Source: Candidatus Nanoarchaeia archaeon (GTDB taxonomy: Archaea; Nanobdellota; Nanobdellia; SCGC-AAA011-G17; JACPNG01). Taken from it: a stretch of DNA of 64,000 bases. The stretch's first letter is position 1; each line of letters opens with the position of its first letter. Made by a program: the position numbers and the translations under genes. The stretch spans positions 49,573 to 113,572 of the forward strand of contig JAQTOC010000001.1 of the NCBI GenBank assembly GCA_028713535.1. Direction: 5' to 3'. The notes under the pieces were generated by a model that saw only the letters and a program-made list of their open reading frames with translations, searched no databases and was not told where the DNA came from. Shown here in pieces: positions 6,605-56,596 of this stretch.

Positions 6605-7924
6605 TTATTTCTCAAAACCAAATTCTTTTTTAGGAGCAATTGCGTGAGGAGCTTCTCCACCATGCCAGGTAAACCTGGGTCTAATCCTTACTGGATACAA
6701 TCTTTCTGAGTTATCATCCAATAAAATTGCTGAGCCAGCCAATCTTGGCAAGTTATTCAAACTTTTTTGCAGATCTGTAATCAAATAAGACTGCATCATT
6801 GAATTAAGGGCATCAATGTCTGGCTTGGCAGTTAGTCTATGACTTAGAACAATATCTGCCTGAGTTATAACATCCTTGTGAATTTCTCCTGGCTGCTGAG
6901 TAGCTAAGACCATTGAGATTCCAGGTTGACGACCTTCTCTTATTAACTGAACTAAGGTATCTGTTGCAGGAGTTTTTCCTTCTTTTGGAAGAAATTCATG
7001 GGCTTCATCAATTAAAACCCAAACCAAGGGCATATCAAGTTTTTTTTCTTCCTCAAATAATCTTGACCTTGTTTGTATGTCTGACAGTTCTTCTTCTTTT
7101 CTTGAGGTCATTCTTTCTTCAAGAAGTTTTTTGCATATTAAGCCAATAACAAGAGATTTTATTCCCCAGCTTCCGGTTCCTTCTTTATAGCATGAAATGT
7201 CAATTATAGAAACTTTTCCTTTTCCAACTATGTTTTTTATTGGAACGCTTTCCTTGTCAAATAGACCCCAGGTCAAGGCTGCCCTAAACCTGTTTTCTGT
7301 TGCGTCCCTTACATTTTGCTCTGAGCGTTTATCTGATTGTGTTCTTGAAATAATATCATCCATCGAATAATCTTTTAGATTTTCCATCAAATCCTGGATA
7401 ACTCTTTCAATCAAAACTCCTATTGGGGAGTTTATATCAACACTGAAAACATTGCACCAGTCTCCTGCTGTCAACTCAGAAGGCTTTAATGCAAATGAAA
7501 AGTCTGCTGGAATTCCTTTTTGCCTGTAATCATTGAAATAACCTTTTGGAGTGTAAATATCAACATTCAGTCCTTTTGGAGAAATGCCCCATTTTTTTAA
7601 CAAATCTTCTTCTTTCTGGTTTGGATATTTCATTGTCCAGAAAATTCCCATTGTGTCAAAGATTAAAACTGATAACCTGTCTTTTATGTCCTTTGGAAGA
7701 TCTGAAACTTCTTCTGCTATTACACCAAGAGAAAAACTTTTTCCAGAGCCTTTTTTTCCAGAAACTAATATTGTATGGGCGCCGTTTACATCTAAATAAA
7801 CATTGTTAGCAAGGGAGGTAACCTCTCCCATCTTTACATATTGTTTTCCGATAAATATTGTTGCTTCTTTCCCATATTTTTTAAGTTCTGGTTCTGATCT
7901 TCCTATTATTATATCCTGGGTCAT
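6605..7924 (-). CDS. HerA/FtsK-superfamily P-loop ATPase (DUF87 'AAA-like' domain)
   Basis: Walker A GKKGSGKS, Walker B VWVLIDEAHEF, ~440 aa; start overlaps the stop of upstream 1450-aa surface protein (ATGA). Confidence 0.7.
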   Translation of the reverse strand: MTQDIIIGRSEPELKKYGKEATIFIGKQYVKMGEVTSLANNVYLDVNGAHTILVSGKKGSGKSFSLGVIAEEVSDLPKDIKDRLSVLIFDTMGIFWTMKYPNQKEEDLLKKWGISPKGLNVDIYTPKGYFNDYRQKGIPADFSFALKPSELTAGDWCNVFSVDINSPIGVLIERVIQDLMENLKDYSMDDIISRTQSDKRSEQNVRDATENRFRAALTWGLFDKESVPIKNIVGKGKVSIIDISCYKEGTGSWGIKSLVIGLICKKLLEERMTSRKEEELSDIQTRSRLFEEEKKLDMPLVWVLIDEAHEFLPKEGKTPATDTLVQLIREGRQPGISMVLATQQPGEIHKDVITQADIVLSHRLTAKPDIDALNSMMQSYLITDLQKSLNNLPRLAGSAILLDDNSERLYPVRIRPRFTWHGGEAPHAIAPKKEFGFEK

Positions 7925-10900
7925 ATTTTGTTTTTCCTTCTCCTGTAAAATCTGTATGCTATGAACAAAATAAATGCCATTGCTACCAATTCAAGCAAGA
8001 ACAATGGAAGGTTTTCTCCTGACAATCCAGTTGGTTTTTGTGCCTGTTCTTTTTCTTGCAAAGTCAAGACTATTTCCTTGCAGCCTTCTATTCCCTGCCT
8101 TGTCAATTCCATTGCCTGGGAGAATCTTCCTGTTGCTAATTCCATGTCTGCCTTGTTTATGTATTCCTGCAATTCCAAACATTCTGGATTTTCATTTAAC
8201 ATGTCTTTTAAGTACCTTAATTTTTCTTTTACTAACTGCTTGTCTTCCAAACCAAACTCAAGAAGGCTTACGAAGAATTTAATCGAGTCTGTTACAGAAG
8301 GATCAGACACTATTGCTTTTACAGTTATGTCTCTTTTTCCTTCTTTTGTATCCTTGTCTGTGATTATCTCCAAATCAACGTCAACTTCTTCTCCAGGGGA
8401 AAGCTTGTCTATTTTGATTTTATTCAAGTTTAGAGTTATGTCTTTTGTTGAAGCAGAAGCCTCAAGATTTATGTCTGACAACAAAACATCGCCTGTGTTT
8501 TTTACTTTGATTGGAGTAATAATTCTTTCTCCAAGGAACAAGGAGACATCTCCAGGATGCAGTATGTCAATTGTCACATATTCTGTTGCGCCTCCACCGC
8601 CTCCTCCTCCGCCACCGCCACCAGCGCTTGGGACTGAGACTGTTGGTAAAACTGCGGAGGTTACGTTTATGCTAAAGTTGTTTGCTGCCACCTCATATTC
8701 TGAATCATTCAAGATTGCCTGAACAATTTCATAGCCAGTCCATCCTGACCTGGGGGTTATTGTTACCATGTTGGAAGTGTTGCTGACAGTTATTGTTATG
8801 TCTGTTGAATTTTTTAATTCCTCGGTTTCATTCATCTGTATAAATGTAAAGTTTAATGTTTGGTTATACCTGGCGTCACCATAATCATAATCCCTGAAAT
8901 AATCATCCAGGTTAAGCAAAGTGTAACTTGTATCCTGGTTAAAGGAAATGTTTGCAATTTCTGCGTAAAATTCAGGAGGGGCATTTACGTTGCTTACTGT
9001 CAAGTTCCAGTACCAAGAAGCCTCGTAAGTTAAATCTGAGATTATTACAGTTACATTATGGGTTCCTTCATCTGTGTAATTTGCATAATAGGTAAAGGCA
9101 TTTGACTGAGTTGATGTTATTGAAGTTACATTTAAAATATTATCAACGTACCAATTATAATACAATGCTTGGCCTGTGTCAGGGTCATTCACATAAACTG
9201 TAAAGGCCTGAGAGGCATTTTCATCTATACCTGCGATGTTTCCAGAAGGAGTTCCAAGCAAGCTTGTTACAGGATCATTCACATCCGAGATATTTATTGT
9301 GAATATTCTTGAATCTTCAAGTCCAAGAGAGTCGTTGACTGTTATGTTAAGGAGCTCAATTCCGGTTTGGCTTGAATTTGGAGTAAATGTTATCTGGCCG
9401 GATGTTATGTTAATTATGAAGTTTGCCCAGGTTGTGTTTGTGTTAAAAGTAAGAGAGCCATTCTGGCCTTCTGGAGAATCTTCTTCATCTGTTGCATTTA
9501 CATCATAAACCAATGCTTCATCCTGCCTTCCTATTATCTGGTCTGTTGAAGTTATGTTTGGCCTGTCATTTACAGCATATATGCTTAAGTTAAATATCCA
9601 TTCATCTGTCAGCCCAGTAGTGTCTCTTACAGTTACATTTATGAAATGATCTCCTGCGAAAGAGTCATTTGTTGGTGTAAATAAAATTACTCCGTTTGAT
9701 GAGCCTATATCAAAGAATGACGAGTTATCCTCCCATGTCAAAACCTCCCATGTGCTGGGAATATTTAAGTCTTCATCTGTTGCATTAAATATATATGACA
9801 AAGTATCGTCTTCATTCACTGTATGATTCTCCCTTGAGGTTATGTTTGGGTTATCATTAACGTTAATAACAGTAAGGTTTACTATGCCTGACACATAATA
9901 ACCAGGAAGGTCTTTCACAGAAAGGTTTATCCAGTTTTCTCCTACAGATGTGTCGTTAGGAGTTATGTTTATCTCTCCTGTTGTTTCGTTTATTGTGATT
10001 ACAGAATCATTTGAGTAGAAGAATAATGCATCATTGTCTGCATCTGTTGCATTTAATGTGAAATTAAAGTAAAATTCAATGTCTTCTGTAAGGCTGAATT
10101 CTGTATTTGGGGTAAACACAGGAGCATTGTTTGCGTAAACTGTGAGATTTATTATTACAGAATCCTCTATTCCAGTTGAATCATTCACTGTTACATTAAT
10201 CCAGTTTTCCCCTACATTGGTCAGGCTTGGGGTGAAAGATGCTATTCCTGTTGATGAGGAGATTGTTATGTAGCTTTCATTTATGCTCCATGTTAAAAAT
10301 TCAGTGGTACCTGGACTGTCTAAGTCACCGTCTGTCGCGTTGAAATCATAATACCAAGTTATTCCTTCATAACCAGTTATGTTTTCTGCTGTTGTTATCA
10401 ATGGAGCGTCATTTACTCCAATGACTGAGAAGTTTATTATTGCTGAATCTATCAATGAGCCATCGCTTACAGTTAAGTTAAGCCTGTGTTCTCCAATATC
10501 AGTATCGGTTGGAGTTACGTTTATGTATCCTGTTGAGTTTATATCCAGCCAGGTTTCATTTAAGGAAAATGTTAATGTGTTTCCATCAACGTCTGTGGCG
10601 TTGACTGTGCAATTAAAATCAACATCTTCTGTCAAAGTTTGGTTATCACATATATAATCAAGAACTGGAGCGTCATTTACATTAGAGATTATAAACCTTA
10701 CAATCTGCGAATAACAGCCGAGAGAATCGTTAATGCTTATGTTTATCTGGTGATCCCCTACTTCTGTGTTTGTAGGAGTGAAGGAAATCAGGCCTGTGGA
10801 TGGATTTATTTCAAAGAATGAAGAATTATCTTCGAAGCTATAAGCGTCGTTTTCTTCATCTGAGCCAGATACGGTGTATGTATAAGCTGTGTCTTCTATT

Positions 10901-50141: not shown

Positions 50142-51164
50142 TTATAAACCTTGTTTTTCCAGTTCTTTTAATTCAAAGTCAACCATTATTTTAACAAGTT
50201 CATTGAAGGATGTGTTTGGTTTCCAACCCAGTTTTATTTTTGCTTTTGTATAATCTCCAAGTAAAATGTCGACTTCTGCAGGCCTGAAAAACTGAGGGTC
50301 AATATGTATTATTGGCATTCCGTTCCAGTAGCCTTTTTCATCAAATCCAGAACCGCGCCATTCAAAGTTAGACATACCAAGACATTTACAGGATTCCTCG
50401 ACGAATTCCCTTATTGAGTGGGTTTCGTTTGTTGCTATCACATAATCATCCGGAGAATCCTGCTGCAGCATCAGCCACATTGCTTCAACATAATCTTTTG
50501 AATAACCCCAGTCCCTTTTTGAGTCTAGATTGCCAAGCCTTAGCTCACTTCTTACTCCTTTTTTTATTTCTGCGAGAGCCCTGGCTACTTTTTTTGTTAC
50601 AAATTCCTCTCCTCTTCTTGGAGATTCGTGATTGAATAAAATTCCGTTGCAGCAGAACATACCATAAGCATCCCTGTATAATTTAGCTGTAAAGAAAGCA
50701 AACTGCTTTGCTATTCCATATGGGCTTCGGGGATTAAATGGAGTTGTTTCCCTTTGAGGAATCTCCATAGCTTTTCCGAACATTTCAGAGCTGGATGCCT
50801 GGTAGAACCTAATGTGTCTTTCTGGATCTATCTTTTTTATGCATTCAAGAAGATTAAGAACTGCAATTCCTGTTACTTGGGTAGTATAATCTGGCTGGTT
50901 AAATGAAGCCTGTACGAATGACTGGGCTGCCAAATTATAGACTTCGTCTGGTTTTGAAATCAGCAATGCCCTTAACAATGAATGAGTATCTGTTAAATCA
51001 CCATCTATTAATGTTATCTTGTCTTTTAAATGTCTAATCCTGCTTAAGTTATCTGTACTTGATCTTCTTACTAGACCATGGACATTATACCCCTTTTCCA
51101 ACAATAACTCTGCTAGGTAAGAACCGTCCTGGCCAGTAATGCCTGTAATGAGGGCAGATTTCAT
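50142..51164 (-). CDS. gmd: GDP-mannose 4,6-dehydratase
   Basis: MKSALITGITGQDGSYLAELLLEKGYNVHGLVRRSS; start at 51164 rather than 51251 (which would overlap tRNA-Glu). Confidence 0.9.
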   Translation of the reverse strand: MKSALITGITGQDGSYLAELLLEKGYNVHGLVRRSSTDNLSRIRHLKDKITLIDGDLTDTHSLLRALLISKPDEVYNLAAQSFVQASFNQPDYTTQVTGIAVLNLLECIKKIDPERHIRFYQASSSEMFGKAMEIPQRETTPFNPRSPYGIAKQFAFFTAKLYRDAYGMFCCNGILFNHESPRRGEEFVTKKVARALAEIKKGVRSELRLGNLDSKRDWGYSKDYVEAMWLMLQQDSPDDYVIATNETHSIREFVEESCKCLGMSNFEWRGSGFDEKGYWNGMPIIHIDPQFFRPAEVDILLGDYTKAKIKLGWKPNTSFNELVKIMVDFELKELEKQGL

Positions 51165-51223
51165 GCAATAGTTAAGATTAAAAAGGTTTATATTGTTTTT
51201 TATGATTAAGAATATGGTTTTTT

Positions 51224-51298
51224 GCTCCGGTAGTGTAGTCCGGTCAATCACATGGGATTCTCGATCCTATAACCCGGGTTCGAATCCCGGCCGGAGCA
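51224..51298 (+). tRNA. tRNA-Glu (anticodon CTC)
   Basis: 7-bp acceptor GCTCCGG/CCGGAGC, T-arm CCGGG-TTCGAAT-CCCGG, anticodon stem TGGGA/TCCTA with loop TTCTCGA; no encoded CCA. Confidence 0.8.
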
Positions 51299-51402
51299 TA
51301 TACTTTTTGGATAATAAATGGGATATTCAACTGAAATTTATTACTCAATACAAATGACTTTTTTGTGGGAAATTTTTTAAGTTAGGTCTTACCCTCAATT
51401 GG

Positions 51403-52932
51403 ATGATAGAAATAGTTGATTGCGGAAGCCAGCTGACCCAAAACATTGCGAGAAGGGTGAGGGAAGCAGGTGTTTTTACAGAAATAATTCCTTTTAATAC
51501 TTCTGTTGAAAAAATAAAAAGAGCAGACCTTGAGGGAATCATAATCTCTGGAGGGCAGTTCAGTGTTTATGATGAGAATTCTCCTATATACTCAAGGGAG
51601 GTTTTAGACCTTGATGTTCCTGTCTTAGGGATATGTTACGGACAGCAATCAATTGCTCATTTGCTTGGGGGAAAGGTAAGCCCTACCCAAAACAGGGAGT
51701 ATGGAGAAACAAAAATAAAATTGAAAAAGGAGAGCAAGTTATTTGATGGAATTTCTCCCTCACAGGAATTTATTGTCTGGATGAGCCACGGAGATGTTGT
51801 TGAAAAGCTTCCAGAAAATTTTGAGGCTACGGCTATTTCCCAAAATGGGCATGTTGCTGCTATGCAGATGCAGGAAAAAAGAATATATTCTGTGCAGTTC
51901 CATCCAGAAGTTGATCATACTCAACATGGCAGAGCCATCTTGGAAAATTTCTTAAAAATTTGTGATGCTCAAAGGACCTGGAAACCTGAAAAAGAATATG
52001 ACAGGATTGTTGAAGAGCTGAAAGAAAAATTAAATGGAAAAATAGGCGTTGGAGGGATTAGCGGCGGGGTTGATTCTTCAACAGTATCTGTTTTAGTCAA
52101 TCAGGTATCTGGTGAAAGTTATCATCCTATTTTTGTTGACAATGGATTATTAAGATTGGATGAAGCCAAAAATGTTAAAGAGAGCCTGGATAAATTTTTA
52201 TTAAACATAATTTATGTTGATGCCAGCGATAGATTCCTAAAGAAGTTGTCAGGCATAACAGATCCTGATGAAAAAAGAAAAATCATCGGCCATGAGTTTG
52301 TTGCTGTCTTTGAAGAGGAGGCAAGAAAAATTTCTGGTGCGACTTATCTTGTTCAAGGAACATTATACCCAGATGTGATTGAGAGTGTTCCTGTTTATGG
52401 TTCTTCATCAAAAATAAAAAGGCACCACAATGTCGGGGGCTTGCCTGAGAAGATGGGATTAGAGGTTATAGAGCCATTCAGGAATTTGTTTAAGGATGAA
52501 GTCAGAAAAATTGCAGAATATAAACTTGGGATGCCAAAATCAATTGTATGGAGACATCCTTTCCCAGGACCGGGATTAGCAATCAGAATCATTGGGGATA
52601 TCACACCAGAAAAACTGGATATTGCCAGAAAAGCAGATGATATATTCATTAGCGAACTTATAAATGAGGGATTATATTATAAGATAAGCCAGGCATTTGC
52701 AGGGCTTTTGGGTGGAAAGGCGGTTGGGGTCATGGGTGATGCCCAGTCTTATGATTATATTGTTGGCTTGAGAGCTGTTGTTACAAATGATTTCATGACT
52801 GCAGATTGGTATGGTTTTGATAAGTCATTTTTAACTAAAGTTACTAACAGGATCATAAACGAAGTCAAAGGGGTGGGCAGAGTTTTTTATGACACCTGTC
52901 AAAAACCTCCTTCTACAATCGAGTGGGAATAG
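51403..52932 (+). CDS. guaA: GMP synthase (glutamine-hydrolysing), fused GATase + ATP-PPase
   Basis: GICYGQQ class-I GATase; SGGVDSS PP-loop; 509 aa. Confidence 0.95.
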   Translation: MIEIVDCGSQLTQNIARRVREAGVFTEIIPFNTSVEKIKRADLEGIIISGGQFSVYDENSPIYSREVLDLDVPVLGICYGQQSIAHLLGGKVSPTQNREYGETKIKLKKESKLFDGISPSQEFIVWMSHGDVVEKLPENFEATAISQNGHVAAMQMQEKRIYSVQFHPEVDHTQHGRAILENFLKICDAQRTWKPEKEYDRIVEELKEKLNGKIGVGGISGGVDSSTVSVLVNQVSGESYHPIFVDNGLLRLDEAKNVKESLDKFLLNIIYVDASDRFLKKLSGITDPDEKRKIIGHEFVAVFEEEARKISGATYLVQGTLYPDVIESVPVYGSSSKIKRHHNVGGLPEKMGLEVIEPFRNLFKDEVRKIAEYKLGMPKSIVWRHPFPGPGLAIRIIGDITPEKLDIARKADDIFISELINEGLYYKISQAFAGLLGGKAVGVMGDAQSYDYIVGLRAVVTNDFMTADWYGFDKSFLTKVTNRIINEVKGVGRVFYDTCQKPPSTIEWE

Positions 52933-53028
52933 ATTATCGGTTTTGATTTTGATTAGGATAAACAAGCATTATACTCTGATATATAGCTAATATTATAATT
53001 AAGTATTTAAAATAAAATATTACTTAAT

Positions 53029-53847
53029 TTGGTAATGGAAGAGGATTTTGATATTCAAAAGAAAAAAGAGGACATAATGAAGAGGGATAATCTTGGTTCT
53101 AGAGAAAGTCAAATCAGAAATTTAGAGGGTTATGTCCCAGAGTTAGTCAAGGATGAGTTCAAGCTTAAGCAATCAAACATAAGCCAGTTCAGAAAGATTG
53201 TTCCTGCACTGATTGAGAAAGGGGTTGAAAACCTAGACTTAAGCATGTTCAGCCAGGAAATGAGAAATGAAATCTTAAATGCTGTCGGAGAAGAGCACTT
53301 ACTTAAAGGAAGATTGCCTGATGCTGTAAAAATTTTCTTAATGACAAAGAACGCCCAGAGATTAAAGGACATTGCAAAGAACTATGAGGATATTGGATTG
53401 TTTGGGAGTGCGGTTGATATTTTAAAAGCCATTGAAGATCTGGATGGATTAGTAAGATTAGGAGACAGATGCTTGGATGCAGGCAGATTAGGGGATGCTG
53501 TAAGAGCAATCAAGTATGTTGGAGACAAGGAGAAATTAGTCAAGATTGGTTATTTCTGCCTTGAGAGAGATAAATTAGATTTTGCTATTGAGGTATTTAA
53601 GAGCGCTTCAAGAGAAGACTTGCTTACTGAATTGGGAGAGAAATGGATAAGGGAAGGCAAGTTTGAGTATGCTTACAAGGCTCTTGAACTTGTTGGAGAC
53701 AAGGCAAGGATAAGCCACTTAGCTGATGTTTTATTAAAAGAAGGATTGTTCAGGGCAGCTTACAAATCTTATGTTTTGGCTGGAAATATAATAATGGCTG
53801 ATTTCATAAGGCAGAATTTTTCTGATAAGAATTCATTGATAGATTAA
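53029..53847 (+). CDS. hypothetical alpha-helical repeat protein
   Basis: repeated ~35-aa helical units (LGDAVRAIKYVGDKEKLVKIG...). Confidence 0.4.
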   Translation: MVMEEDFDIQKKKEDIMKRDNLGSRESQIRNLEGYVPELVKDEFKLKQSNISQFRKIVPALIEKGVENLDLSMFSQEMRNEILNAVGEEHLLKGRLPDAVKIFLMTKNAQRLKDIAKNYEDIGLFGSAVDILKAIEDLDGLVRLGDRCLDAGRLGDAVRAIKYVGDKEKLVKIGYFCLERDKLDFAIEVFKSASREDLLTELGEKWIREGKFEYAYKALELVGDKARISHLADVLLKEGLFRAAYKSYVLAGNIIMADFIRQNFSDKNSLID

Positions 53848-53864
53848 GAAAGCTTTAAATAAAT

Positions 53865-55364
53865 TTGTTCTTGATTTATTTTATGACAAAGTACTACATA
53901 ACTACAGCTATTGATTATGTAAATGCAAAACCGCATATTGGGCATGCTTATGAGAAAGTAATAGCTGATGTTCTTGCAAGATGGAACAGGTTGAACGGCA
54001 AAGATGTTTTTTACCTGACTGGCACTGATGAAAATGCACAGAAAAATGCACAGGCTGCAAAAGAAGCGAAGAAGGAAGCAAAAAACTTTGTTGATGAAAA
54101 TGTAAATTACTTTATTGAATTATGTGAAAAATTAAACCTAAGCAATGATTATTTCATAAGAACAACCGAGAAAAAACATATCAAAACTTCCCAGGAAATC
54201 TTCAAGAAAGTCTTTGACAAAGGAGATATTTACAAGGGAACTTATGAAGGTTATTACTGCGATGGATGCGAGGCATTCATAACAGAGAAAGAATTAGTCA
54301 ATGGAAAATGCCCTGAGCACAACAAAGAGCCAAAGCACATCAAAGAGGAAAATTATTTCTTTAAGATGTCAAATTATGAAAAAGAAATGCTGAAGCTCCT
54401 GGAAAAACCGGGCTTTGTTTATCCTGATTACAGAAGGAAGGAGATGTATAACAGAGTCAAGGAAGAAGGATTAAAAGATTTATGCGTAAGCAGAAAAGGA
54501 ACTGACTGGGGGATTAAATTACCCAATAACAAAGACTTTTCAATTTATGTTTGGTTTGACGCTTTGATAAACTATGTTTCTGCATTGGATTATCCTGATG
54601 GAGATTTATATAAAAAATTCTGGCCCGCAGACGTTCATCTAATTGGAAAAGGGATAAATTGGTTTCATTCTGTTATTTGGCCAACAATGCTGATGTCTGC
54701 TGGGATTAAATTACCTAGGCAAATTGTTGTTCATGGTTACTTGACAGTTAATGGACAAAAAATAAGCAAGAGCCTAGGAAATGTGATTGATCCGATTAAA
54801 CTTGTTGATAAATACGGAGCTGATCCAGTAAGATATATTTTAATAAGGGACATTCCTTTTGGAGAAGACGGAGATTTCTCTGAGAGAGCGTTGGTTGAAA
54901 GAATAAATTCTGAATTAGCAAATGGAATCGGAAATTTGGTTAACAGAAGTTTAGGCATGACTGAAAAATACTTTGAGGGAAAAGTACCAAAGGGAAAAAA
55001 TATTATTAAGTTTGATTTGAAAAAGTTTAATGAGCATTTTGACAGATTAGAATTACATTTGGCCTTAGGAGAGATTTGGAGATATATAGCTGAGTGCAAT
55101 AAGTTCATCGATGATAAAAGACCATGGGAATTAGCTAAGAACAATGACAAGGGACTTAATGATGTTATTTATTCTGTTCTGGATTCATTAAGAATAATTT
55201 CAATATTAATCAGCCCATTTGTTCCAGAGACATCTGAGAAAATATGCAAGAAGCTGGGAATGGGTTTGGGAAAATACAAAGATATTAAAATTGATTTGCT
55301 AAAAGCAGGAATTCAGACAAATAAAGGAAAAGTCTTGTTTGATAAAATAGAAAATGGAATGTAA
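53865..55364 (+). CDS. metG: methionyl-tRNA synthetase, catalytic core only (no C-terminal tRNA-binding domain)
   Basis: HIGH = PHIGHAYE; KMSKS = KISKS; Zn knuckle CDGCEAF...CPEH; probable true start ATG 53883 (MTKYYITTAIDY). Confidence 0.95.
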   Translation: MFLIYFMTKYYITTAIDYVNAKPHIGHAYEKVIADVLARWNRLNGKDVFYLTGTDENAQKNAQAAKEAKKEAKNFVDENVNYFIELCEKLNLSNDYFIRTTEKKHIKTSQEIFKKVFDKGDIYKGTYEGYYCDGCEAFITEKELVNGKCPEHNKEPKHIKEENYFFKMSNYEKEMLKLLEKPGFVYPDYRRKEMYNRVKEEGLKDLCVSRKGTDWGIKLPNNKDFSIYVWFDALINYVSALDYPDGDLYKKFWPADVHLIGKGINWFHSVIWPTMLMSAGIKLPRQIVVHGYLTVNGQKISKSLGNVIDPIKLVDKYGADPVRYILIRDIPFGEDGDFSERALVERINSELANGIGNLVNRSLGMTEKYFEGKVPKGKNIIKFDLKKFNEHFDRLELHLALGEIWRYIAECNKFIDDKRPWELAKNNDKGLNDVIYSVLDSLRIISILISPFVPETSEKICKKLGMGLGKYKDIKIDLLKAGIQTNKGKVLFDKIENGM

Positions 55365-55542
55365 GCAAAAAAACAACTTGAAATACTGCAACTGCACTTA
55401 TGACTGCAATAAAAAAGGAATTTGCTGCGAGTGCATAAGGTATCACCGGGAAAAGAAACAGTTACCTGCGTGTTATTTTGACAATAAGACTGAGAAAAGC
55501 TATGACAGGTCTTTTGAAAAATTTTTGGAGGCAAGAAAATGA
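55354..55542 (+). CDS. possible 62-aa Cys-rich micro-protein overlapping both neighbours
   Basis: MECKQKNNLKYCNCTYDCNKKGICCECIRYH...; 11-nt overlap with metG end, ATGA overlap with next gene. Confidence 0.3.
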   Translation: MECKQKNNLKYCNCTYDCNKKGICCECIRYHREKKQLPACYFDNKTEKSYDRSFEKFLEARK

Positions 55543-55859
55543 TTAGTTTTGAGCAATTCAAGGAATTTGAATTCAAAGTTGGGGAGATTAAGGAAGCCAA
55601 GGAACATCCTAATGCTGATAAGTTAGTTATTTTAAAGGTTGATATTGGAGAAGAGGAAAGACAGATTGTTGCTGGAATAAGGAAACATTATGATATTGAT
55701 GATCTTGTTGGAAAGAAAATAGTCATTGTTGCTAATCTAGAACCTGCAATGTTAAGAGGAATCAAAAGCGAGGGAATGTTGCTGGCTGCTGTAAATAATG
55801 ACAAGGTTGTTTTGGTAACTCCTGAGAGCGATATAGAGAACGGGGCAAGAGTGCAGTAA
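55539..55859 (+). CDS. Trbp111/EMAP-II-like tRNA-binding domain protein (free-standing MetRS C-terminal domain homolog)
   Basis: FEFKVGEIKEAKEHPNADKLVILKVDIGEE..RQIVAGI OB-fold tRNA-binding signature. Confidence 0.8.
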   Translation: MISFEQFKEFEFKVGEIKEAKEHPNADKLVILKVDIGEEERQIVAGIRKHYDIDDLVGKKIVIVANLEPAMLRGIKSEGMLLAAVNNDKVVLVTPESDIENGARVQ

Positions 55860-56016
55860 TATTTATATAGTCTTTATCTTGTTTTTTGCTGATTGATTTA
55901 GAAATTTTTGCCCCTTCAGGGTTATATTAAGAGGTGGACTCTTAGTGGCAATTCTGCTTTGATATTTCTAATTGCTGGAGGGGCTTGGAAAGTTTAAAAT
56001 TTGAAAAGGAGATACC

Positions 56017-56310
56017 ATGGATTTTACAAATTTACTTGGCCTTGTTGCAGCCACAGGGTCTACAATATCTTTTATGCCTCAGGCATGGAAAGTATACCGG
56101 ACGAAAAAGACGAAGGATCTTTCATTGGGGATGTATGTCCTTATAACCTTGTCATTATCTGGTTGGTGGGTGTATGGATTCTTGCAAAAAGATCTTCCGC
56201 TTTTGGTTGCTAATTCAATTACGGTGCCTTTGACAGCATACATATTGGGAGTGATTGTGAAGAACTTGTTTAAGAAATCCAAGAAGACTAAAAGGAAAAA
56301 CCAGGAGTGA
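56017..56310 (+). CDS. SemiSWEET / PQ-loop family 3-TM transporter
   Basis: PQ motif FMPQAWKVYRTKKTKD; three TM helices in 97 aa. Confidence 0.75.
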   Translation: MDFTNLLGLVAATGSTISFMPQAWKVYRTKKTKDLSLGMYVLITLSLSGWWVYGFLQKDLPLLVANSITVPLTAYILGVIVKNLFKKSKKTKRKNQE

Positions 56311-56434
56311 GGCATCTTGTTATCAGACTACGCTCAACTGATTCAGTTGGGCGTTTTGTTTATTAGTTAAGTATATATGCATAGATACTAAATATTTTTG
56401 TCTTGATCGAAGAGAAATTTCTTGCAATAAGGAC

Positions 56435-56509
56435 TGAGCCCGCCGCGATTCGAACGCGGGACCTCTCGATTATCAGTCGAGTGCTATAGCCAGGCTAAGC
56501 CACGGGCTC
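56435..56509 (-). tRNA. tRNA-Ile (anticodon GAT)
   Basis: revcomp GAGCCCG...CTCGA-CTGATAA-TCGAG...CGCGG-TTCGAAT-CCGCG...CGGGCTCA. Confidence 0.85.
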
Positions 56510-56524
56510 GTGAATATCAAAAAG

Positions 56525-56596
56525 CGTCCCGAGCAGGATTTGAACCTGCAACCGCATGATTAACAGTCATGTGCTCTACCATTAAGCTATCGGGAC
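56525..56596 (-). tRNA. tRNA-Asn (anticodon GTT)
   Basis: revcomp GTCCCGA...CATGA-CTGTTAA-TCATG...GCAGG-TTCAAAT-CCTGC-TCGGGAC-G. Confidence 0.85.

Follow-up and report, generated by a model that had tools for sequence, protein, structure and literature searches.

The C-terminal domain of MetRS has been reported to bind the 3' end of tRNA and to lower the Km, and both Trbp111 and the MetRS C-domains homodimerise and bind tRNA in a manner that enhances aminoacylation (PMC11286949). This domain may be fused to the synthetase, as in the DPANN relatives P0123 and P0221 and in Nanoarchaeum equitans, the MetRS of which carries such a C-domain (PMC11286949). The two-piece MetRS, by comparison, is the ordinary state in the DPANN lineage and an already known arrangement. 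In the present study, a split metG locus was analysed in a Candidatus Nanoarchaeia MAG. The window is a stretch of 64,000 nt (assembly GCA_028713535.1, contig JAQTOC010000001.1, positions 49,573 to 113,572 of the forward strand), and all coordinates given here are counted from its first nucleotide.

Three overlapping ORFs, all on the + strand, make up the locus: a core ORF at 53865..55364, a 62-aa ORF at 55354..55542 and a 106-aa ORF at 55539..55859. The core and the 62-aa ORF share 11 nt (ATGGAATGTAA), and the 62-aa and 106-aa ORFs share ATGA; the positions and both overlaps are as an earlier sequence-only reading of this DNA had described them. The gene layout points to a three-gene operon, metG core - DUF6485 - metG beta, in this DPANN genome, with the following features:

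53854..53861, + strand: TATA-like box TTTAAATA, read from the sequence, 22 nt upstream of the metG ATG at 53883.
53883..55364, + strand: metG core, MetRS alpha, 493 aa (PF09334, PF19303, NF008900; start as in the NCBI record P0121).
55347..55524, no strand: segment of about 178 nt with no counterpart at the related locus L010 (blastn).
55354..55542, + strand: DUF6485 gene, 62 aa (PF20095, homologs, alignment A1).
55527..55531, + strand: GGAGG, putative Shine-Dalgarno sequence of the beta gene, 7 nt before the ATG at 55539.
55539..55859, + strand: MetRS beta subunit, a free-standing Trbp111-like OB-fold tRNA-binding protein, 106 aa (PF01588, TIGR00399).
55882..55887, + strand: T6 run, candidate oligo-T terminator, 23 nt past the beta stop codon.

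The gene arrangement was reproduced in a second assembly, since the independently assembled Logan contig L009 is 100% identical to window positions 54035-56463. The archaeal TATA box is known to lie at about -26, and for this reason the position of TTTAAATA suggests a promoter that would give a leaderless or near-leaderless operon transcript. At the other end, the T6 run is a candidate archaeal oligo-T terminator that may close the three-gene operon.

The core showed the features of a class I MetRS, namely the HIGH and KISKS motifs, a score above an equivalog cut-off and a helical anticodon-binding domain. It matched the MetRS catalytic family PF09334 with E=4.7e-104, the MetRS anticodon-binding domain PF19303 with 39.2 bits (cut-off 23.5), TIGR00398 with 496 bits (cut-off 336) and NF008900 with 650.5 bits (cut-off 598). 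The HIGH motif occupies core residues 18-21 (53934-53945) and the KISKS motif residues 293-297 (54759-54773). The sequence-only reading had placed HIGH, KMSKS and Zn knuckles in this protein; the two motifs were recovered, the latter in its KISKS form, whereas a single putative knuckle pair was read from the sequence, CDGC (residues 126-129, 54258-54269) with CPEH (residues 143-146, 54309-54320), of the Cys3His type. The same reading had taken the core to be 499 aa long. The ORF is real, but translation probably starts at the ATG at 53883, giving the 493 aa of the NCBI annotation (P0121), and not at the TTG at 53865, which lies only 4 nt past the TATA-like TTTAAATA. The core keeps its anticodon-binding domain and lacks the C-terminal tRNA_bind domain, as had been noticed before, and its match to NF008900 covers model positions 4-511 and stops there, short of position 648.

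The missing domain is encoded separately, in agreement with the earlier description of a free-standing Trbp111-like domain. The 106-aa protein scored 112.4 bits against PF01588 (cut-off 27) and 129.2 bits against the NCBIfam model TIGR00399 (metG_C_term, 'methionine--tRNA ligase subunit beta'; cut-off 116.65), and it matched positions 543-648 of NF008900, the 648-position model of full-length MetRS. It fell below the equivalog cut-offs of the Trbp/CsaA models (NF007492, 90.4 versus 150; NF007494, 66.8 versus 109; TIGR02222, 61.8 versus 119.65). Because it lies below these cut-offs and above the MetRS C-terminal model, the protein, judged by these models, derives from a MetRS C-domain. The beta protein of the window shares 88% and 70% identity with those of the two closest genomes, the first of which is encoded at L032, on the same contig as L010.

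The 62-aa ORF matched the Pfam family PF20095 (DUF6485) with 31.8 bits (gathering threshold 24, E=2.1e-7). In a database of 5.8 billion proteins, 394 homologs were found at 55-72% identity, with E values down to 2e-22; the 120 that were listed share 58-72% identity with it and are 62-79 aa long with PF20095 as their sole label, which had been precomputed on P0001 and on every listed homolog. The homologs come from Desulfobacter, Marinimicrobia, KSB1, Omnitrophota, Fidelibacterota, Brevinematia and Nano/Woesearchaeota. Moreover, a profile search run exhaustively over 1.84 billion representative proteins returned 483 clusters, of which the best 150 are all 50-156 aa in length, and no fusion of DUF6485 to a larger protein was seen among these 150. 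On this evidence from sequence comparison, the 62-aa ORF is an intact and genuine gene of an independent, widespread and free-standing family that ranges over many anaerobic bacteria and DPANN archaea. In the NCBI records, members are named 'cytosolic protein' or 'DUF6485 family protein', and no paper in the literature library searched names DUF6485.

In the alignment of 66 sequences (A1), the invariant Cys/His residues are C12, C14, C18, C24, C25, C27, H31 and C40; C3 comes close, being present in at least 90% of the sequences. The window protein carries the full pattern C-x8-C-x-C-x3-4-C-x5-CC-x-C-x3-H-x8-C and retains all 18 invariant positions of the family in addition to C3. The conservation test that had been proposed for the Cys pattern thus found the Cys/His residues invariant in the family and every one kept in the window copy, and the earlier suggestion that the Cys-rich ORF could be a metal binder is plausible, the ORF being a real gene with a conserved pattern. 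Because eight Cys/His residues are invariant and a ninth Cys nearly invariant, DUF6485 probably binds Zn or Fe-S through nine conserved ligands. Its AF2 model (pLDDT 79) gave no structural match, and the sole match among PDB sequence profiles was the eL37 zinc ribbon at a non-significant E=0.11.

Comparison with the closest relatives showed how this gene is placed. The closest MetRS, 83% identical, is encoded in GCA_028714095.1 (L010), at a locus syntenic with the window, with a 271-aa ORF upstream and Topo VI A/B downstream. At this locus beta follows the core directly through an ATGA overlap and DUF6485 is absent; at L077, a second relative at 83%, the core and beta likewise overlap and DUF6485 is absent. 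Blastn aligned window 53889-55346 with L010 5040-6497 and window 55526-55860 with L010 6499-6833, so that flanks 80-84% identical to the closest genome enclose an extra segment of about 178 nt, which contains almost the entire DUF6485 coding sequence and a new metG stop codon (TAA). The boundaries of this segment are uncertain by a few nucleotides because the 8-mer AGAAAATG is repeated at 55349-55356 and 55534-55541, at both start codons. Immediately ahead of the beta start, 17 nt (TTGGAGGCAAGAAAATGA) correspond by homology to the end of metG in L010 (GTGGAGGCTGAAAAATGA), with the GGAGG conserved, and the C-terminus of DUF6485 reads the old metG tail codons, LEARK* as against VEAEK* in the relative.

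A scan of GTDB species representatives provided 80 related metG loci at 51-83% identity, and tblastn found DUF6485 in none of the 80. Beta is split from the core and downstream in 35/80 loci, fused to the core in 10, absent from the flank in 30, and the contig end cuts off the remaining 5. Among the 35 split loci, core and beta abut or overlap in 27, and these span Woesearchaeota, Nanoarchaeia and Aenigmatarchaeota. Comparison with orthologous loci, which the sequence-only reading had called for, therefore recovered the split and fused states that it had envisaged; the micro-ORF itself was found at none of these metG genes. Parsimony favours an insertion into the window's lineage, since both 83% relatives and 80/80 related loci are without DUF6485. 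The other 8 of the 35 split loci have gaps of 166-435 nt with other, unrelated ORFs at the junction, encoding an 85-aa membrane protein (L014, L015), a 145-aa GNAT-like protein (L017), a family of 131-151 aa (L038, L058, L071) and two others. Because these split relatives carry other small genes there, the core-beta junction appears to be a permissive operon junction that has tolerated insertions repeatedly. The 272-aa ORF upstream of the window's core was also considered as a general MetRS partner and was discarded, with homologs in only 5/80 related loci.

No metG was present in 80 metagenomic DUF6485 loci, the neighbours of which fall into a heterogeneous set of 136 Pfam families. The commonest is the NAD-dependent DNA ligase LigA, directly upstream in 8/80, followed by radical SAM proteins (3) and CobO (2); with so mixed a set, and with the commonest neighbour in just 8/80, a conserved partner was rejected. 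The inspected neighbours included radical SAM enzymes (L001, L007 and L180, the last with RlmN), an HD-domain protein and a HAD hydrolase, as well as PlsY with CobO, a set of peptide deformylase, thioredoxin reductase and thioredoxin, and PAP2 with a TrxR-like protein. DUF6485 frequently abuts or overlaps its co-directional neighbours; tight packing is thus a general trait of the family rather than a peculiarity of the window locus. A free-standing tRNA_bind gene is the immediate neighbour in 2 of about 86 independent loci, both bacterial: at L130 DUF6485 is followed, 278 nt downstream, by a MetRS-C-term-like gene, and at L140 it is preceded, 38 nt upstream, by a CsaA/YgjH-type gene. The two bacteria are unrelated and their flanking genes differ. 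A rough chance expectation is 0.04-0.2 loci, against the 2 observed, and because the hypothesis had been set in advance by the window, this adjacency is suggestive of a functional link; we regard it as a lead, not a finding. Several other families likewise recur twice among the DUF6485 neighbours.

A foreign or mobile origin of the gene was also considered. DUF6485 is essentially missing from mobile elements (1/72,556 plasmids, 0/50,697 phages and 3 weak matches in 2.9 million viral contigs), and a link to them was rejected. Foreign composition was likewise discarded, as the GC content of the gene equals that of the window (0.354 versus 0.355). No second copy was found within the window. The closest DUF6485 homolog, at L011, does not share a guaA-DUF6485 synteny with the window, since it lies on a bacterial contig of 55.7% GC on which the GuaA-like protein is only 35% identical.

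These data can be read in several ways. The explanation that we consider probable is that the locus is a three-gene operon with an ordinary split MetRS, into which an intact DUF6485 gene hitch-hiked as an insert of about 178 nt at a permissive junction, with no dedicated function in MetRS. The sequence-only reading had proposed either a coupled linker ORF left by gene fission or a Zn-binding adaptor, and had held that absence from syntenic relatives would mark the micro-ORF as spurious. That the ORF is spurious, or that a fission scar left it as a degenerate piece of linker, might seem to accord with its shortness, its overlap with both neighbours, the lack of an evident Shine-Dalgarno sequence of its own and its absence from syntenic relatives. 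Against this, the ORF scores above the PF20095 gathering threshold, retains every invariant residue and has hundreds of free-standing counterparts in other phyla at 60-72% identity. Furthermore, it does not resemble the linkers that join core and C-domain in fused relatives: tblastn gave no match in the 10 fused loci or in the 70 other related ones, and no fused MetRS relative carries the PF20095 label. The family score, the homologs and the invariant residues together rule out the scar as the identity of this ORF, and we give that reading hardly any credence. The proposed linker thus gives way to an independent family, with 0/10 fused linkers similar and a clean insertion of about 178 nt, and the rule that equated absence with spuriousness fails, as the gene is absent in 80/80 loci and is nevertheless a PF20095 member. 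No more credible is the production of one core-DUF6485-beta polypeptide by programmed frameshifting or stop-codon read-through. Core and beta share a reading frame and both overlaps are short, but frame 0 from the core stop to the beta start holds many stop codons, by which read-through fusion was rejected. The frameshift form was rejected as well, as no canonical slippery heptamer was seen by eye at either overlap and no DUF6485 fusion proteins were found in the databases searched; in relatives, moreover, beta is expressed separately via the ATGA overlap.

It is very improbable, on our estimate, that DUF6485 ancestrally lay at the core-beta junction and that the relatives lost it by precise deletion. 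A comparison of two genomes cannot polarise an indel, and the flanking 8-nt repeat AGAAAATG might equally have mediated a deletion or be the mark of an insertion. Nevertheless, both 83% relatives and 27/35 split loci have abutting core and beta genes, and with 0/80 loci carrying DUF6485 an ancestral position would need many independent precise losses. Somewhat more weight, though still little, may be given to DUF6485 as a functional partner of a free-standing OB-fold tRNA binder (MetRS beta, Trbp or CsaA type), which we hold to be unlikely; on this view the protein might be a small adaptor, capable of binding metal, through which beta is tethered or regulated, and its operon position would reflect such a role. 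Its overlap with both neighbouring genes would also fit a stoichiometric partner, it adjoins a free-standing tRNA_bind gene in the two unrelated bacterial contigs, genes with a link to translation or tRNA are frequent among its neighbours (RlmN, peptide deformylase, queuosine genes), and it bears a weak eL37 zinc-ribbon resemblance (E=0.11). On the other side, DUF6485 is missing at 80/80 related metG/beta loci, both closest genomes included, a tRNA_bind gene is lacking within 3-5 kb at about 84 of about 86 other DUF6485 loci, the protein is unfused in the best 150 representatives, the eL37 match is not significant, and several other families are likewise met with twice next to DUF6485. Synteny gives no support either to the earlier proposal of a MetRS adaptor that binds Zn, with DUF6485 at 0/80 metG loci and metG at 0/80 DUF6485 loci. 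An extended form of this idea, in which DUF6485 partners tRNA-binding OB-fold proteins and the insertion was an adaptive recruitment, for example to modulate the delivery of tRNA to MetRS in response to redox state or metal, draws on the presumed double translational coupling and on the two bacterial loci that abut tRNA_bind genes, and we judge it a shade more doubtful.

Under the preferred reading, that of a hitch-hiking insertion, the following course of events may be outlined. A gene-sized insert of about 178 nt would have entered five codons before the ancestral metG stop, just upstream of the beta GGAGG, and would have supplied metG with a new stop. DUF6485 would then read through the old tail codons (ancestrally VEAEK*) and inherit the ATGA overlap with beta. 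A single leaderless transcript would cover the locus between the TATA-like box and the T6 run (55882-55887), and translation may be coupled down the chain from core to DUF6485 to beta. The core would aminoacylate tRNA-Met, and beta would act in trans as a dimeric binder of the tRNA 3' end that lowers the Km, like Trbp111 or a fused C-domain (PMC11286949).

The locus is a cautionary case, in that an ORF missing in syntenic relatives and overlapping both of its neighbours can still be a genuine conserved gene. It also offers an example at the nucleotide level of how an operon with translational coupling may take up a gene-sized insert and stay intact: the ribosome-binding site downstream and the ATGA overlap are preserved, and the upstream gene gains a new stop codon. 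If the link between DUF6485 and tRNA_bind proteins were true, it would provide the first functional handle on a widespread Cys-rich family of anaerobes and DPANN archaea.

As a system, the locus contains nothing new: split MetRS is common in DPANN, DUF6485 is a known Pfam family, and the position in the operon is an evolutionary detail. Compared with full-length MetRS with a fused tRNA_bind domain (NF008900/PRK12267, 648 positions), the window's core and beta jointly span positions 4-511 and 543-648, so that the linker of about 30 residues is lacking and the parts are separate polypeptides. With the two-subunit MetRS (core plus TIGR00399 beta) the locus shares the HIGH/KMSKS motifs, the anticodon-binding domain and a separate PF01588 protein of about 106 aa. 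In relatives with this arrangement the subunit genes are adjacent with an ATGA overlap, whereas in the window a third, unrelated gene lies between them. The window beta belongs to the same PF01588 fold family as Aquifex aeolicus Trbp111, E. coli Trbp (YgjH) and CsaA, which are dimeric OB-fold proteins, and resembles them in its size and free-standing state (PMC11286949), but it lies under the Trbp/CsaA equivalog cut-offs and over the MetRS-C-term model. Finally, the window copy of DUF6485 shares with the PF20095 family its length (62 aa, against 60-80 aa), the invariant Cys/His pattern, the free-standing state and an above-threshold score, while its location in a metG operon is unique among the approximately 170 loci examined.

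The neighbourhood upstream of metG undergoes frequent micro-rearrangement. When window positions 50154-53847 were compared with positions 1814-4506 of L010, the syntenic locus of the closest relative (GCA_028714095.1), several gene-sized indels were found within a few kilobases. In this two-locus comparison, guaA (window 51403-52932) was present in the window only, and L010 alone carried genes of the KTI12/AAA_18-like, HIT and LAGLIDADG types as well as one for a hydrolase. The following gene lies within this region:
Window 53029-53847, plus strand: 272-aa ORF, 5' of metG

This ORF had no match in Pfam, and its placement upstream of metG was kept in both of the two relatives at 83% MetRS identity. 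Linkage of its family to metG was found in 5 of the 80 related loci, and weak homology to the window ORF (E values of 2e-5 to 2e-3) was detected in shorter ORFs of three Woesearchaeota, which are located at the junction of the MetRS core and beta genes:
L038 5460-5855; L058 5391-5846; L071 3914-4324: ORFs of 131-151 aa

Small membrane proteins were also encoded near MetRS genes, at the core/beta junction in two other Woesearchaeota loci and after beta in the window:
L014 1578-1835; L015 5506-5766: predicted membrane protein, 85-86 aa
Window 56017-56310: PQ-loop membrane protein, 97 aa
BLASTP revealed no significant similarity between the 85-86-aa protein and the window PQ-loop protein.

Downstream of beta, the window carries a pair of tRNA genes, both without an intron and spaced by 14 nt:
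Window 56435-56509, minus strand: tRNA-Ile(GAT)
Window 56524-56596, minus strand: tRNA-Asn(GTT)
In the L010 counterparts (6852-8098), inserts of approximately 39 nt and 192 nt split the homologous stretches near the anticodon-loop position, and the two stretches are separated by an 817-nt spacer with a LAGLIDADG_3 gene. ARAGORN found no tRNA there. It is likely that L010 harbors intron-containing tRNAs together with a homing-endonuclease gene, and that both the introns and the endonuclease gene are missing from the window.

Among the 80 metagenomic loci carrying DUF6485, the commonest neighbour found was the gene for the NAD-dependent DNA ligase LigA, which directly preceded DUF6485 in eight (counted per locus), the distance between the two genes ranging from -20 to +34 nt:
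L099, L131, L134, L145, L146, L155, L163, L171: LigA gene with DUF6485 directly 3'

A further domain arrangement was observed in seven MetRS homologs of DPANN archaea (P0144, P0177, P0214, P0218, P0227, P0228 and P0232; 664-734 aa each), in which PF03483 (B3_4) is fused to the MetRS core instead of a C-terminal tRNA_bind domain. The Pfam labels of these homologs list PF03483 first, which suggests an N-terminal position for a domain whose usual home is the beta subunit of PheRS.
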